NCBI RefSeq assembly: GCF_046291545.1
Contig: NZ_JBKBSM010000001.1
Location: forward strand, 102,900 to 166,899
DNA from: Phenylobacterium sp.
Lineage (GTDB): Bacteria > Pseudomonadota > Alphaproteobacteria > Caulobacterales > Caulobacteraceae
Direction of reading: 5' to 3'
Length of the DNA stretch: 64,000 nt
Shown here: piece by piece, positions 3,231-34,563 of the stretch
Layout: every line of letters begins with the position of its first letter
How positions within the stretch are numbered: position 1 is the first letter of the stretch
Notes under the pieces: generated by a model
What the model saw: the letters and a program-made list of their open reading frames with translations, nothing else
Database searches by the model: none
Told to the model about the DNA's origin: nothing
Translations under genes and position numbers: made by a program

Positions 3231-4326
3231 GCCCTTCCGCCTGCTGGTCCTGCCCGGGGACGGCATCGGCCCGGAGGTGATCGGTCAGACCCTGCGGGTC
3301 GTCGACTGGTTCGGCCGATTCCTCGGGCGGCCCTTTGCGATCAGCCAGGACCTGGTCGGCGGGGCCTGCCTCGACACGCACGGCGTTCCGGTGACGGACG
3401 CGGTGGTGGAGACCGCGCTCAGCGCCGATGCGGTGCTGTTCGGGGCGGTCGGCGGGGAGAAGTGGGACAGTCAGCCCATCCACCTGCGCCCGGAGGCCGG
3501 GCTGCTGCGGCTGCGCAAGGACCTGGACCTCTTCGCCAACCTGCGCCCGGCGATCTGCTATCCGGAGTTGGCCAGCGCCTCGGCGCTGCGGCCGGAACTG
3601 GTCGAGGGGCTCGATATATTGATCATCCGCGAGCTGACCGCCGGGGTCTACTTCGGCGAGCCGCGGGGCGTGGAGACCCTGGCGAACGGCGTGCGCCGGG
3701 CCTTCGACACCCAGGCCTACACCTCCGAGGAGGTGGAGCGGGTGGTGCGGGCGGGGTTCGACATCGCCCGCGGCCGCAACAGGCGCGTGTGCTCGGTGGA
3801 CAAGGCCAACGTGATGCAGACGGGCGCCTTCTGGCGCGAGATCGCCACCGCCGTCGGCCGCGACTATCCCGACGTGGAGCTGACCCACATGTACGCGGAC
3901 AACTGCGCCATGCAGCTGATGCGCCGGCCCAAGCAGTTCGACGTGGTGGTGACCGACAACCTGTTCGGCGACATCCTCTCGGACGCGGCGGCCATGCTGA
4001 CCGGATCGCTCGGCCTCCTGCCCTCGGCCTCGCTGGGAGCGGCGGGCCCGGACGGCGTCCGCAAGGCGCTCTACGAACCGGTGCACGGCTCGGCGCCGGA
4101 CATCGCCGGGCGGGGGCTGGCCAATCCGCTGGCGACGATCCTGTCGTTCGGCATGTGCCTGCGCCACTCGATGCGCGCGCCCGAGGCGGCCGATCGCCTT
4201 GAAGCCGCCGTGCGCCGCGTCCTGGCCCGGGGCGTTCGCACCGCCGACATCGCCCGTCCCGGCGAGGCGGGGGTGTCGACGACGCAGATGACCGACGCCG
4301 TGCTGGCGGAGTTGGATGCGATGTAG
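3214..4326 (+). CDS. leuB: 3-isopropylmalate dehydrogenase (beta-decarboxylating dehydrogenase)
   Basis: [53 protein letters not shown]. Confidence 0.85.
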
Positions 4327-4327
4327 C

Positions 4328-4345
4328 TGCTCAATCGGTTGAGCA
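4328..4345. promoter_or_regulatory. Perfect palindrome TGCTCAATCGGTTGAGCA, candidate XRE-cupin operator (site 1)
   Basis: 7-4-7 perfect inverted repeat upstream of the hydrolase-aminotransferase-ABC operon; related copies at 18185 and 18798. Confidence 0.7.
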
Positions 4346-4418
4346 CTAAACCCGGTTGGGCGCCGCGGGACGCGGGACTAGACTTGCGCGCTTGGGGACG
4401 CATTCGGCGGAGGGGGCC

Positions 4419-5423
4419 GTGCTGGCGAAGATCGGAATGGGGGTCTTGATCTTCATCGCGGCGCTCGCCGCCCTGGCGGGGCTGGCTTTCGCTGGGCTCT
4501 ACCGGCCAGACATCCCCTATGAGAAGCTTGAGGCCAAGTACGCCCGGCCGACCTCCCATTTCGCCGACCTGCCCGGCGGGGTGCGCATGCACTACCGCGA
4601 CGACGGTCCGCGCGACGCGCCGGTGGTCATGCTGGTGCACGGCTACGGGGACAGCTTCCTGACCTGGGAGCCCTTCATCGAGCGGCTGTCGCCGAATTTC
4701 CGGGTGATCACCATCGACCTGGCGGGCCACGGCCTGACCCGGGCGCCGGCGGGCTATGCGCCGGACATGGACCGCTTCGCCGAGCAGGTGGACGCCCTGG
4801 CTGCCAAGCTCGACCTGCCTCCCTTCGCCATCGTCGGCAACTCCATGGGGGGAGGCGTGGCCTGGCAGACGGCGGTCAGGTTCCCCGAGCGGGTGAAGGC
4901 GCTGGTGCTGGTGGACGCGGCCGGCTGGCCGGCGGACCCGAACAAGCCGGTCCCGGCCGCCTTCAAGATCCTGCAGAGCGACCTAGGCCGCTTCCTGCTG
5001 CAGCGGATCGAGACCCGGCCGCTGACGGCCCAGGGGCTGAAGATGGACGTGGTCGACGATTCCCTGATCACCCCGGCCTTCGTCGACCGCTGGGTCGAGG
5101 TGCAGCGCGCGCCTGGCCACCGGGCCATCCTGATGGGCGTGCGCCCGGGGCGGCACACCGTCGCCAGCGAAGCGGCGCTGGGCCAGATCAAGGCGCCCAC
5201 CCTGGTGCTGCATGGCGAGCAGGACGTGATCATCGATCCCGCGGACGGCCGCAAGTTCGCCGCCGCCATCCCCGGCGCGGCGCTGATCACCTATCCCAAC
5301 GCCGGCCACCTGCCGCAGTATGAAATCCCCGATCGCTCGGCCGCCGACGTGACGGCCTTCCTCCTGGCGCTGCAGGCCCCGCCCGCCGCGCCCGCCCCGC
5401 AACCCGCCAGGGACCCGGCATGA
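4419..5423 (+). CDS. Membrane-anchored alpha/beta-fold hydrolase
   Basis: N-terminal hydrophobic helix, HGYG, GNSMGG nucleophile elbow, GEQD acid, GH base; GTG 4419 after GGAGGGG (ATG 4437 is an alternative). Confidence 0.88.
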   Translation: MLAKIGMGVLIFIAALAALAGLAFAGLYRPDIPYEKLEAKYARPTSHFADLPGGVRMHYRDDGPRDAPVVMLVHGYGDSFLTWEPFIERLSPNFRVITIDLAGHGLTRAPAGYAPDMDRFAEQVDALAAKLDLPPFAIVGNSMGGGVAWQTAVRFPERVKALVLVDAAGWPADPNKPVPAAFKILQSDLGRFLLQRIETRPLTAQGLKMDVVDDSLITPAFVDRWVEVQRAPGHRAILMGVRPGRHTVASEAALGQIKAPTLVLHGEQDVIIDPADGRKFAAAIPGAALITYPNAGHLPQYEIPDRSAADVTAFLLALQAPPAAPAPQPARDPA

Positions 5424-29800: not shown

Positions 29801-30430
29801 TCAGCCGGCGGCGAAGCTCTGCCGCAGGGCCGCCAGGCTGGTCTCGCGGATGGGCTCGAGGTCCATTTTCGGGTCGATCAGGAGCTGCATGGACAGGCCG
29901 AGCAGCAGGGCGCCGATCATCAGGGCCGCGGCGTCGGCGTCGATCTCCGGGCGGATCGCCCCTTCGGCCTGGCCGCGCAGGACCAGGGACTCCAGCTTTC
30001 GCTCCACCTCCACGTGGGCCTTGGCGAAGGGCGCGCGCTGGTCGGACAGGTCTCCGATCGCCCCGGCCATCAGGATGAAGTAGGCCCGAGCCTCGCCGTC
30101 CTCGGCCAGGTTGCGCAGGAACACGTCGACGAAGGCGAGGATGGCGTCCAGCGCCGGCAGGCCGTCGACGTCGCGGGCGTCGAGCTGGTCCTGCAGGCGC
30201 GCCTGAAGCTGGGCGATGAGCGATTCGATCAGCCCCTGCTTGGAGCCGAACTTCTGCGCCGCTAGCCCGCGGCTGTAGCCGGCCCGCTGGCCGATGTTCT
30301 CGAAGGTGGCCGCGCCGACGCCACGCTCGTCGATCAGGCCGGCGGCCGCCGCCAGCAGCAGGCGCTCGGACTGGTCGCGGCGTTCGGCCTGGGTGCGGCG
30401 GGGCCGTGCGGCTGGACGCGAAGCAGTCAT
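29801..30430 (-). CDS. TetR family regulator
   Basis: RRTQAERR, ATFENIGQRAGYSRGLAAQKFGSKQGL; divergent from the P450. Confidence 0.88.
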   Translation of the reverse strand: MTASRPAARPRRTQAERRDQSERLLLAAAAGLIDERGVGAATFENIGQRAGYSRGLAAQKFGSKQGLIESLIAQLQARLQDQLDARDVDGLPALDAILAFVDVFLRNLAEDGEARAYFILMAGAIGDLSDQRAPFAKAHVEVERKLESLVLRGQAEGAIRPEIDADAAALMIGALLLGLSMQLLIDPKMDLEPIRETSLAALRQSFAAG

Positions 30431-30447
30431 GCGGCGAGCTTACTTAT

Positions 30448-30465
30448 TTGTTGAACGTCCAGCAA
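30448..30465. promoter_or_regulatory. Imperfect palindrome TTGTTGAACGTCCAGCAA, candidate TetR operator
   Basis: Lies in the short divergent tetR/P450 intergenic region. Confidence 0.5.
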
Positions 30466-30528
30466 CTTGATGGAATGCTTCGATCGACGGCCGGCCTGGA
30501 GACCGGCGCGCGCATCAGGGAGCCAGAC

Positions 30529-31809
30529 GTGACCATTCCCCAGGACGTGGCCGACACCATCGTCGATCCGAAGGCCTATGCGGCCGGCAAGCCGGTGGAC
30601 GAAGCCTTTGCGTGGCTGCGGCGCGAGGCGCCGCTCGAACAGGCCCAGCCGGCGGGGTTCGACCCCTTCTGGGTGGTCACGCGCCATGCCGACATCCTGG
30701 AGGTCGAGCGCCAGAACGAACTGTTCCACAACGGCGACCGCTCCACCGTGCTGACCACCATCGAGGCCGACCGCAAGGTGCGCGAGATGATGGGCGGCAG
30801 CCCGCACCTGGTGCGCTCGCTGGTGCAGATGGACAACCCCGACCACATGAACTACCGGCGCCTGACCCAGGGCTCCTTCGTGCCGCAGAACCTGCGGCCC
30901 CTGGAGGCGCGAATCCGCGAGATCGCCAAGAGCTTCGTCGACCGCATGGCCGAGCACGGCGGACGCTGCGACTTCGCCCGGGACGTGGCCTTCCTCTATC
31001 CGCTGCACGTGATCATGGAGGTGCTCGGCGTCCCCGAGAGCGACGAGCCGCGGATGCTGAAGCTGACCCAGGAGCTGTTCGGCAGCGCCGACCCGGAGCT
31101 GAACCGGACGGGGACCGAGGTGCGCGACGCCGACGTCAACACCGGGGTGGACACCATCCAGTCGGTGGTCATGGACTTCATGACCTATTTCAACGCCATC
31201 ACCGAGGACCGCCGGGCCAAGCCGCGCAGCGACATCGCCAGCGTGATCGCCAACGGCAAGATCGACGGCCAGCCGCTCGGCCACCTGGAGGCGATGAGCT
31301 ACTACATCATCGTCGCCACCGCCGGCCACGACACCACCTCCTCGACCACGGCGGGCGCCCTGTGGGCCCTGGCCGAGAACCCCGAGCAGTTCGCCAAGGT
31401 CAAGGCCGACCCCTCGCTGATCGGCGGCCTGATCGAGGAATCCATCCGTTGGGTGACGCCGGTGAAGCACTTCATGCGCACGGCGACCGCCGACGCCGAG
31501 CTGGCCGGGCGCAAGATCGCCAAGGGCGACTGGCTGATGCTGTCCTATCCCTCGGGCAATCGGGACGAGGCGGTGTTCCAGGATCCGTTCAAGTTCGACG
31601 TGCAGCGCACCCCCAACAAGCACGTGGCCTTCGGCTACGGCGCCCACGTGTGCCTGGGCCAGCACCTGGCGCGGATGGAGATGCGCCTGTTGTGGGAAGA
31701 GCTGCTGCCGCGGCTGGAATCGGTGGAGCTGGACGGCGAGCCGAAGAACATGCAGGCGTCCTTCGTCTGCGGCCCCAAGGCGGTGCCGATCCGCTTCAAG
31801 ATGCACTGA
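30529..31809 (+). CDS. Cytochrome P450, CYP108 (P450terp)-like
   Basis: AGHDTT I-helix, EESIR ExxR, FGYGAHVCLG heme motif; 'LYPLHVIMEVLGVPE.DEPRMLKLTQ' recalled as CYP108-like; GTG 30529. Confidence 0.92.
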   Translation: MTIPQDVADTIVDPKAYAAGKPVDEAFAWLRREAPLEQAQPAGFDPFWVVTRHADILEVERQNELFHNGDRSTVLTTIEADRKVREMMGGSPHLVRSLVQMDNPDHMNYRRLTQGSFVPQNLRPLEARIREIAKSFVDRMAEHGGRCDFARDVAFLYPLHVIMEVLGVPESDEPRMLKLTQELFGSADPELNRTGTEVRDADVNTGVDTIQSVVMDFMTYFNAITEDRRAKPRSDIASVIANGKIDGQPLGHLEAMSYYIIVATAGHDTTSSTTAGALWALAENPEQFAKVKADPSLIGGLIEESIRWVTPVKHFMRTATADAELAGRKIAKGDWLMLSYPSGNRDEAVFQDPFKFDVQRTPNKHVAFGYGAHVCLGQHLARMEMRLLWEELLPRLESVELDGEPKNMQASFVCGPKAVPIRFKMH

Positions 31810-31819
31810 GGCGGCGCGC

Positions 31820-31999
31820 GTGACGGCAGAGCCCTACAAGACCTGGCAGTGCCGCACCTGCGGCTATCTCTACGACGAGGAAGCGGGCGACCCGGGCGAA
31901 GGCTTGGCGCCGGGAACCCGCTGGGCGGACATTCCCGACACTTGGATCTGTCCGCTCTGCGGCACGCCGAAGGCCGACTTCGACATGGTGGAGATCTAG
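31820..31999 (+). CDS. Rubredoxin (59 aa; absent from the ORF track)
   Basis: Manual translation MTAEPYKTWQCRTCGYLYDEEAGDPGEGLAPGTRWADIPDTWICPLCGTPKADFDMVEI; two CxxCG knuckles. Confidence 0.95.
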   Translation: MTAEPYKTWQCRTCGYLYDEEAGDPGEGLAPGTRWADIPDTWICPLCGTPKADFDMVEI

Positions 32000-32004
32000 G
32001 GCCC

Positions 32005-32033
32005 GGCGCCCTCCCCGGCGGGGGAAGGGCGCC
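32005..32033. terminator. GC-rich hairpin between convergent genes
   Basis: GGCGCCCTCCCC/GGGG-A-AGGGCGCC stem; no U tract. Confidence 0.35.
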
Positions 32034-32045
32034 TTCCCGCCCGTC

Positions 32046-32456
32046 TCAGCCGGCGGCCATGGCCCGGGTCTCGATGTTGAGCTGGCCGGCCAGGCCGGCG
32101 GCGCGGTGCACCTCGATCTCGTGGAACTCCGGCATCTGGGTCATCGCCAGGAAGGCCGCGCGGGAGGGGTATTCCATCAGGGCCACCGCATCCCACAGCT
32201 CCTCGACCTGGCCCAGCATCAGGCCAGTCACCGCGCCGGAATAGATCACGCGCCCGCCGAGGGATTCGGCCAGGACCCGCACCCGGTCGCCGTAGCGCAG
32301 GTAGGCCTCGCGCCCGGACACCTTCTCGCCGCTGGCGTAGTCGGCGACCTCACGGAACTTGAGCAGATTGACCATCACGAACGGGCCCGCTTCCGGCGCG
32401 TGGAAGGTGGCGGCGATCTGGTCCATGGTGGGCATGACGGCGTTTTCGACGTTCAT
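32046..32456 (-). CDS. DUF1330-like protein
   Basis: PFVMVNLLKFR, REAYLRYG, WDAVALMEYPSRAAF, HRAAGL. Confidence 0.8.
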   Translation of the reverse strand: MNVENAVMPTMDQIAATFHAPEAGPFVMVNLLKFREVADYASGEKVSGREAYLRYGDRVRVLAESLGGRVIYSGAVTGLMLGQVEELWDAVALMEYPSRAAFLAMTQMPEFHEIEVHRAAGLAGQLNIETRAMAAG

Positions 32457-32468
32457 GGGGGCTCCTCC

Positions 32469-33365
32469 TCAGGCTTTGGCCAGGCGATCAAGCAGGGCGG
32501 CGATTTCGGCGGGGCTGTCCTCCTGCAGGAAGTGCCCGCCGCGCAGGGTCACGTGGGCCTGGCCCATCGCGCCGGGCACGCGCGCCTGGAACGGGGCGTC
32601 CGCGCCCTTGGTTACGGGATCGGCGTCGCTGAAGGCGGTGACGAACGGCTTGTCGAACGCTTCCAGCACCTTCCAGGCTTCCAGGTTCTCGGCCACTGAA
32701 GGATGCTGGGGGGTGATCGGCACTAGGGCCGGGAACTGGCGGGCGCCGGCCTTGTAGCTCTCGTCCGGGAACGGGGCGTCGTAGGCCGCCACTTCGGCGT
32801 CGGTCAGCTCGCGCACCGAACCGGCCTGCAGCAGGGCCCCGACGGCCAGCACCGGCACGTTCTGGCTGAACGCCAGCCACTGGTCGAAGCCCGCCGAGGA
32901 GCCGGTCCCCGTGGGCAGGAAGGTGTTGGCGGCGACCACCGCCTTGAAGCGCTCGGGGAAGGCGGCGACCAGGCGCAGGCCGATCAGCCCGCCCCAGTCC
33001 TGGCAAAATAGGGTGATGTTCCTCAGGTCCAGGGCGGTGACCCAGGCGCTCATCCAGGCGACGTGCCGCTCGTAGGTGTAGTCGGCGCGGGCGGCCGGCT
33101 TGTCGGAGCGGCCGAAGCCGATCAGGTCGGGCGCCACGACTCGATGCCCGCCCGCCGCCAGCGGCGGAATGATCTTGCGGTAGAGGTAGCTCCAGGAGGG
33201 CTCCCCGTGCATCAGCAGGATCGGGTCGGCGGCGCCGGGCCCCTCGTCGACATAGTGGATGCGAAGCGAGGTCCCGTCGGCGTCGCGGACCTCCCGATAA
33301 TGCGGTTCGAACGGCCAGTCGGCCAAACCCTCGAAGCGCTCATCCGGCGTGCGCAGGACGTTCAT
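32469..33365 (-). CDS. Haloalkane dehalogenase
   Basis: [24 protein letters not shown] (Asp nucleophile and Trp), GHFLQED; ATG 33365. Confidence 0.9.
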
Positions 33366-33408
33366 GTCTCCACCCCTGGCTTGACATCGCCCGCCTGAGG
33401 GCGAAGTT

Positions 33409-33427
33409 ATGACAATATCCGTGTCAT
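33409..33427. promoter_or_regulatory. Perfect inverted repeat ATGACA-N7-TGTCAT, candidate TetR operator
   Basis: Lies in the divergent dehalogenase/MBL promoter region, downstream of a TTGACA at 33381. Confidence 0.55.
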
Positions 33428-33459
33428 TATATCCCGACGCGGTCAACAGGGAGGCGGCG

Positions 33460-34563
33460 ATGGCGGCCCGGGGTTCGATCAGAATTGTCCTGCTCGTGGC
33501 GTTGGGGCTGGTCCTGGCGGCCGGCGCGGCGGCGTGGCTGGCCCGTGGCCAGCTTGCGACCGGCATGATGCGCCGGGTGCTGGCGGCGAACCTGGGGCGC
33601 GATCCGATCGCGGCCCTTCCGGACGGGCTGCACGTGGGGCTGTGCGGCACCGGCTCGCCCCTGCCCGACCCCAAGCGCAACGGCCCCTGCGCCATGGTGA
33701 TCGCCGGAAAGCGCATGTTCATCGTCGACTCCGGGGAAGGCGCGGCCAAGGGCCTGACGATGATGGGCTTCCGGCCCGCACGGGCGGAGGCGCTGCTGCT
33801 GACCCACTACCACTCCGACCACATCGACGGCCTGGGCGGCGTGATGCTGCAGCACTGGGCCGGCGGAGCGGCGCGGGCGCCGCTGCCCGTCTACGGCCCG
33901 CCGGGCGTCGAGGCCGTGGTCAAGGGCTTCATGGACGCCTACGCCCTGGACCAGGGCTACCGGATCGCCCACCACGGCCCGGCGGTCGTGCCGCCCGAGG
34001 GCTTCGGCGCCGCGCCGCGCCCATTCACCGTGGCGGCGGACGGAGGCGAGACGGTGCTGATCCAGTCCCCCGACCTGAAGGTCACGGCCTTCGCCGTGGA
34101 TCACGACCCGGTCGAACCGGCGGTCGGCTACAAGTTCGTCTACAAGGGCCGCAGCGTCGTGATCAGCGGCGACACCGCCCCGTCCAAGGCCGTCGAAACC
34201 GCCGCCAGGGGCGCCGACGTGCTGGTGCACGAAGCGCTGTCGCCGACGCTGGTGGGCCTGCAGGAAGAGGCCGCGCGCAAGGCGGGCGCGGCCAACCTGG
34301 CCAAGGTGTTCCACGACATCCTCGATTACCACACCAGCCCCGAGCAGGCCGCGGACGTCGCCCAGGCCGCAGGGGTCAAGATGCTGCTCCTGACCCACAT
34401 CGTTCCGGCCCTGCCTGTCGCCGCCCTGGAGGGGCCGTTCCTGGGCGAGGCGCGCATGCGGTTCGACGGCCGCCTGCGCCTTGGGCGGGACGGGGACCTC
34501 GTGAGCCTGCCGGCGAACGAAGCGACGATCAGCCTGTCGAATCGCTCGGCGATGCGCCCCTGA
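33460..34563 (+). CDS. MBL-fold metallo-hydrolase (RNase Z/AtsA-like), membrane-anchored
   Basis: CGTGSP, THYHSDH, SGDT, HEA, YHTSP, LTHIVP. Confidence 0.88.

Follow-up and report, generated by a model that had tools for sequence, protein, structure and literature searches.

Within a 64,000-nt stretch of the genome of Phenylobacterium sp. (assembly GCF_046291545.1; contig NZ_JBKBSM010000001.1, here C15, positions 102900-166899; hereafter, the window), a gene encoding a CYP108-family cytochrome P450 is directly followed by a gene encoding rubredoxin and is preceded by a divergently transcribed gene for a TetR-family regulator. The genome measures 3.93 Mb in 24 contigs, with 71% G+C. Bacterial P450s are widely used biocatalysts, and their application is often limited by the search for a redox partner that works. 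A first-pass annotation of the window had proposed a rubredoxin-driven P450 system at this locus, and comparative genomics supports the proposal. We consider it likely (a probability of roughly 0.75) that the three genes form a self-contained module in which rubredoxin replaces ferredoxin as the electron donor to the P450. This interpretation is favored because P450 and rubredoxin genes are linked in several gene orders, the rubredoxin is the only one in a genome in which no AlkB was found, the two genes co-occur among relatives, and the P450 tree splits cleanly between rubredoxin-linked and unlinked enzymes.

The P450-rubredoxin locus

The module consists of the following genes, given in window coordinates:

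29801-30430, minus strand: TetR-family regulator, 209 amino acids (aa), divergent from the P450 gene (PF00440 TetR_N, 8.4e-10, 38.7 bits)
30529-31809, plus strand: CYP108-family cytochrome P450, 426 aa (PF00067, 3.8e-33, 115 bits vs. a cut-off of 22.8)
31820-31999, plus strand: rubredoxin, 59 aa, net charge -7 (PF00301, 76.7 bits vs. a cut-off of 23)

The regulator and P450 genes are separated by 98 nt. The P450 reading frame is open already from 30406, and the GTG codon at 30529 is preceded by GGGAG, 6 nt upstream. Since this GTG lines up with P450terp and, in 70-odd orthologues, with the ATG, it was taken as the start codon. Exactly 10 nt lie between the P450 stop codon (31807-31809) and the GTG start codon of the rubredoxin gene (31820), and the GAGG ahead of the latter overlaps the P450 stop codon. 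The earlier description of a 59-aa rubredoxin 10 bp past the P450 stop is borne out by these coordinates, by the PF00301 match and by both cysteine knuckles of the protein. The gene had also been described as missed and unannotated; it does fall below the 60-aa cut-off of the open reading frame (ORF) list, but an identical protein is present in NCBI and UniRef, where its cluster mates are named rubredoxin.

The closest solved structures to the P450, all matching over their full length, are P450terp/CYP108A1 (1cpt, 2.8e-136), CYP108D1 (3tkt) and P450tol (7v40), in agreement with the first-pass label of "CYP108-like". By a hand count of the alignment, ~203 of 423 aligned positions (~48%; residues 2-424) are identical to CYP108A1. 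In P450 nomenclature, members of a family share >40% identity and members of a subfamily 55%, and the full-length identity to this named member thus places the enzyme in CYP108; since ~48% lies below the subfamily line, a distinct CYP108 subfamily is likely, for which the nomenclature committee would assign the formal name. The P450 signatures are intact, i.e., the heme-cysteine loop (FGYGAHVCLG), the I-helix motif (AGHDTT) and ExxR (as EESIRW). Characterized CYP108 enzymes act upon terpenoid alcohols and alkyl-aromatics.

The rubredoxin is a single-domain PF00301 protein with knuckles CxxCG and CPxCG, which provide the ligands Cys11, Cys14, Cys44 and Cys47. Solved rubredoxins match it at 1.3e-22 at best, and other structural matches include rubredoxin 2 of P. 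aeruginosa (2v3b_B, 1.0e-19), RubB of M. tuberculosis (PDB 7a9a, 4.8e-19) and rubredoxin 2 of P. oleovorans (1s24_A, 3.1e-17). With the NCBIfam equivalog model NF045768 it scored 73.8 bits, short of the cut-off of 90, so that this narrower model was not reached. The rubredoxins of the module as a family are strongly conserved and acidic, with a net charge of -6 to -7. As the first-pass annotation had stated, neither a ferredoxin nor a reductase is encoded in the window: genome-wide searches with profiles Fer2, Reductase_C and Fer4_15, and tblastn with the genome's own ferredoxin reductase and ferredoxin, gave no match inside it. At this locus, rubredoxin does stand in the place of a ferredoxin.

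Conservation of the linkage

To judge conservation of the arrangement, we used 80 loci at species level, drawn from public genomes, in which the P450 has 79-88% identity to that of the window. Synteny in these relatives is retained, with rubredoxin kept at 76 of the 80 orthologous P450 loci and in several gene orders: directly downstream on the same strand (52 loci), downstream of the divergent TetR gene (20), directly divergent (3) and elsewhere (1). Orthologues of the module occur in Caulobacter, Phenylobacterium, Parvibaculum, Terricaulis and Rhizomicrobium, and the module also appears to be present in Caulobacter vibrioides. None of the genes that flank it in the window (encoding PEPC, a DUF1330 protein, a haloalkane dehalogenase, an MBL-fold protein and a penicillin amidase) recurs at the 80 loci. 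Since the flanks vary while P450 and rubredoxin persist, the conserved unit is P450 plus rubredoxin, usually with TetR, moving together.

The next most frequent gene clusters occur at 21 loci or fewer; these are pur genes and genes for a DUF3291 protein and a peptidase, all in Caulobacter. Conserved flanking genes were considered as a clue to the substrate and rejected, as none is conserved across the 80 loci. In Caulobacter sp. CCH9-E1 (L058:4019-13272), the TetR, P450 and rubredoxin genes, with a DUF3291 gene after them, are inserted between purC and purQ/purL.

The distribution of rubredoxin genes points the same way, and relatives from the genus show the same linkage. Among 61 relatives, 12 genomes carry a rubredoxin, exactly one each, and in 11 of these 12 the gene adjoins a P450 gene. 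Wherever a relative has the orthologous P450 (nine genomes), a single rubredoxin gene is present, at the same locus; of the other 52 relatives, 3 carry a rubredoxin. In a further relative, the rubredoxin gene is divergent from that of a CYP108-like P450 of 61% identity. Another Phenylobacterium (genome G015; L135:2859-4482) carries its sole rubredoxin gene 17 nt after a P450 gene and ahead of an enoyl-CoA hydratase gene. That P450 is only 31% identical to the P450 of the window and its nearest solved structure is PikC/CYP107, while its rubredoxin has the motifs PGTRW.DIPDTW and FDMVE in common with the rubredoxin of the window. This is an independent pairing of a P450 with rubredoxin.

Of 251 high-quality Caulobacterales genomes, drawn evenly from the order, 39 carry a rubredoxin. 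We examined 38 of these 39 loci (G079 enters the count of 39 only), and 33 of the 38 are P450-adjacent, 32 with P450s of the CYP108-like clade and one with a P450 of another family. The first-pass premise that rubredoxins typically serve AlkB-type hydroxylases therefore fails in this order. We give even odds to the broader proposition that in the Caulobacterales and some neighboring Alphaproteobacteria rubredoxin is now mainly a dedicated P450 partner, recruited by at least two, and perhaps three, unrelated P450 lineages, i.e., the CYP108-like clade, the CYP107/PikC-like enzyme of G015, and a further P450 (locus L138). Such recruitment, if true, would establish "class I-Rd" as a natural type of P450 system, in which the carrier is a sulfide-free, one-iron protein of 54-59 residues.

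Phylogeny of the P450s

A tree of 112 P450s resolved clades of 90 and 21 members, plus one sequence (L041), without rubredoxin, on a long branch outside both. The 90-member clade (support 99) holds all 86 rubredoxin-linked P450s, and none of the 21 kinase-linked paralogues in the sister clade (support 100) is linked to rubredoxin. The genome under study contains a member of the sister clade as well (C15:1180492-1181742; L132:8430-9752), 65% identical to the P450 of the window. It has a TetR gene upstream and is followed by genes for an APH-fold kinase (L132:9661-10791) and a thiolase-like protein (L132:11614-12897), with no rubredoxin.

Redox partners encoded in the genome

The genome encodes nine P450s, and the rubredoxin of the window is its only PF00301 match. 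Its sole AIF-type ferredoxin reductase (FdR; Pyr_redox_2 plus Reductase_C) lies at C15:574735-576030 and is adjoined by the gene for an adrenodoxin-like 2Fe-2S ferredoxin (Fdx). This pair, at C15:574-576 kb and 440 kb from the window, immediately follows sdhA and sdhB in the same orientation (L131:8394-12951; C15:574-579 kb), a housekeeping position from which it presumably serves the other eight P450s in common. A profile search for Fer4_15 ferredoxins found none in the genome, and there is one weak Fpr-like match (C19:253 kb). No dedicated rubredoxin reductase was found; PF18267 matched just one 1276-aa frame on contig C14, of which the N-terminal part is 37% identical to FdR and which we would guess to be NirB-like. 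AlkB was likewise not found in the genome. Its two FA_desaturase (PF00487) matches are a DesA-like protein (NF052548, 329 bits) and a GntB/CrtW-like one, and neither is an AlkB or lies near the rubredoxin gene.

Comparison with known systems

The nearest characterized relative by P450 sequence is the P450terp system of Pseudomonas sp. (CYP108A1, terpredoxin and terpredoxin reductase), which has in common with the module the P450 family and all its motifs, and also the requirement of a soluble bacterial P450 for a small, acidic, one-electron carrier. The terp operon encodes the 2Fe-2S terpredoxin, terpredoxin reductase and downstream dehydrogenases. In contrast, the module of the window has a one-iron rubredoxin, no linked reductase or dehydrogenase, and a divergent TetR. 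In classical class I operons a ferredoxin, and usually a reductase, is encoded with the P450; neither is found here, and since dehydrogenases are lacking as well, the module is not a classical terp-type operon. Nor does it resemble an AlkB/AlkG/AlkT system beyond the carrier itself, a rubredoxin of the same fold (cf. the 2v3b_B and 1s24_A matches), since neither the hydroxylase that defines such systems nor the dedicated reductase was found in this genome.

Judged by analogy, the module would appear to work most like CayG/CayL. CayG is a CYP113-like P450 of caryoynencin biosynthesis in Trinickia/Burkholderia, for which CayL, a rubredoxin encoded in the same cluster, is the redox partner (PMC9322674). 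In vitro reconstitution of the pair succeeded with flavodoxin reductase from E. coli, i.e., a heterologous flavodoxin/ferredoxin reductase (PMC9322674), and since the pair works with such an enzyme, no dedicated in-cluster reductase is needed. As with CayG/CayL, the rubredoxin gene of the window is conserved beside its P450 gene across genomes. The two differ in that CayG works within a biosynthetic cluster for a polyyne, in which desaturases draw on the rubredoxin as well and a ferritin-like protein is a redundant partner (PMC9322674), while the module of the window is a minimal three-gene unit with TetR and without a desaturase, has a CYP108 rather than a CYP113-like P450, and is far more widely conserved.

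A second precedent is RubB of M. tuberculosis, which supports CYP124, CYP125 and CYP142 with reductases of the FdR or FprA type; the genes for RubA and RubB are part of the alkB operon, and binding to P450s was described as transient and not highly specific (bioRxiv 10.1101/2020.10.27.356691). The likeness extends to a small rubredoxin acting with class I P450s, and CYP124, CYP125 and CYP142 are among the next-best solved relatives of the P450 of the window. Unlike RubB, the rubredoxin gene studied here is tied to one P450 clade, in a genome in which no AlkB was found. We found no paper on a CYP108-rubredoxin pair, although subscription journals were mostly outside the search and absence from the literature is not thereby proven. 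From sequence comparison, the assignment of the module to a rare, rubredoxin-partnered kind of P450 is well supported, and the arrangement is real and moderately surprising.

Proposed function and alternative explanations

For the transfer of electrons, the reductase, the regulation and the substrate, we infer the following scheme. TetR would repress the divergent promoters at a shared operator until a hydrophobic ligand binds, this ligand probably being the P450 substrate or a relative thereof. P450 and rubredoxin would then be made from a single transcript. The acidic, one-iron rubredoxin would be reduced, one electron at a time, by an NAD(P)H-dependent flavoprotein encoded at an unlinked locus, for which the sole AIF-type FdR is the best candidate and the Fpr-like protein a weaker one. 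From the rubredoxin, the electrons would pass to the CYP108-type P450 at its proximal face. The P450 may hydroxylate a small hydrophobic compound, the sole pointer being the substrate preference of its family. Such a route is chemically credible since the CayG/CayL and RubB precedents exist.

A number of observations weigh against rubredoxin as the donor, and the main objection is thermodynamic. Substrate-bound class I P450s have a potential of about -170 mV (P450cam). For rubredoxins, the potentials usually quoted range from -100 to +50 mV (bioRxiv 10.1101/2020.10.27.356691), and since these lie above that of the P450, the first electron transfer could be uphill. Linkage also has its exceptions: rubredoxin is absent at 4 of the 80 orthologous loci, and one locus (L172; G263:C32:68000-76000) keeps orthologous TetR (3819-4409) and rubredoxin (4433-4609) genes with no P450 within ~4 kb to either side, the P450 having been either lost or moved away. 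No FdR or Fdx gene is linked (6 kb or less) at 109 of 110 related loci, leaving the module without a linked reductase. The 21 positions that distinguish the two P450 clades are mostly conservative, with one charge change (E60/S) plus R382/K; no clade-specific charge change stands out between rubredoxin-linked and unlinked P450s, and a docking signature on the proximal face cannot be claimed without coordinates. No natural P450-rubredoxin fusion was found among 12 candidates scored, a result of little weight. Finally, the FdR/Fdx pair could serve all nine P450s, and rubredoxin might then be an auxiliary or back-up carrier (iron- or sulfide-sparing, or stress-tolerant), with 2Fe-2S ferredoxin and FdR as the main P450 donor. 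This we regard as unlikely. It is true that the FdR/Fdx pair is the only one on hand for the nine enzymes, that RubB has been proposed as a ferredoxin substitute under stress (bioRxiv 10.1101/2020.10.27.356691), and that CayL is redundant with CayK (PMC9322674). However, rubredoxin tracks one P450 clade and neither the paralogous clade nor other P450s, its linkage survives several rearrangements and transfers into new genomic contexts, and its gene appears to be under the module's own TetR, with no visible iron or stress regulator.

A role other than electron donation, such as the handling of superoxide or peroxide from uncoupled turnover, heme or iron delivery, or redox sensing, seems to us very improbable. 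Rubredoxins do act in the oxidative-stress pathways of anaerobes, and the potentials discussed above are unfavorable for P450 reduction. Yet the module loci have no linked rubrerythrin, superoxide reductase or partner of that sort, the conserved unit there being just P450, rubredoxin and usually TetR; moreover, as a canonical acidic rubredoxin the protein is of the electron-transfer type, and CayL and RubB provide two experimental cases of direct P450 support. Least probable of all, and hardly credible in our view, is that the adjacency is incidental and that, as in the classical systems, the client of rubredoxin is a membrane di-iron enzyme encoded elsewhere, for example a fatty-acid desaturase or an AlkB-like hydroxylase. 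The two FA_desaturase-family genes of the genome could be cited in its favor, as could one relative (G045), the only one of the 12 with a rubredoxin that is not P450-adjacent, in which the gene follows that of a desaturase-family protein. Neither desaturase-family match is an AlkB, however, and incidental adjacency would have to account for P450 linkage at 76 of the 80 orthologous loci. A desaturase as the true client of rubredoxin was rejected because its presence is unrelated to that of rubredoxin across the 61 relatives: the DesA-like gene occurs in 36 of them, 31 of which have no rubredoxin, and 7 of the 12 rubredoxin genomes lack it.

If rubredoxin were confirmed as the dedicated donor of this P450, rubredoxin-driven P450 catalysis would be known from three cases, of which this one is by far the most widely conserved. 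To the earlier cases, the locus adds a genome with a single rubredoxin and no AlkB found, a clade split against a kinase-linked paralogue, a second and unrelated P450 family paired with rubredoxin in a congener, and the order-wide frequency of P450 adjacency (33/38). Such donation would further demonstrate how a P450 can be reduced by a carrier whose potential is relatively high, and would supply a dedicated partner of very small size that is stable, readily expressed and without labile sulfide. Genetics are routine in C. vibrioides, and the apparent presence of the module there would allow a simple test. The results also correct the annotation habit of taking every rubredoxin as the partner of an alkane hydroxylase.

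Candidate regulatory elements and neighboring genes

Other features at or beside the module are the following:

30444-30469, no strand assigned: candidate TetR operator, a 26-nt element (alignment of 77 upstream regions)
32005-32033, no strand assigned: GC-rich hairpin in the gap between the rubredoxin gene and the convergent DUF1330 gene (fold energy; no T run)
32046-32456, minus strand: DUF1330 gene, convergent with the rubredoxin gene
32469-33749, minus strand: haloalkane-dehalogenase-family hydrolase (NF002043, 472 bits vs. a cut-off of 265)

A TetR orthologue (45-72% identity) is present at ~60 of the 80 related loci. The first-pass annotation had noted a divergent TetR with a palindrome; the divergent TetR was confirmed, but the palindrome is weak in the window. 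In the 26-nt element, the alignment shows a conserved left half-site, TTATTTGTTG, and a degenerate right half (GTTG-N9-CAAC), and an inverted-repeat search of the TetR-P450 intergenic region of the window found none. At the same position, Caulobacter loci have a clear, conserved dyad, TTGTTG-GA-CAACAA, nested in TTATTTG-N12-CAAATAA. A separate upstream motif, TTGAAC-N8-10-ACTTGGTG[G/A]AATGG, is common to five Phenylobacterium loci that lack TetR (L061, L073, L074, L090 and L091), and occurs at 30450-30485 of the window as well, here alongside TetR. Possible roles of this motif are as the promoter of the P450 gene or as a second control site. Scans of the locus for intrinsic terminators and sigma-70 promoters gave no match.

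Downstream of the rubredoxin gene, a 71-nt stretch that includes the hairpin folds with -40.9 kcal/mol, but with z = -1.0 relative to shuffled sequences; the hairpin is possibly a bidirectional terminator. The haloalkane-dehalogenase-family ORF carries ~128 additional N-terminal codons and, therefore, its true start is probably further in.

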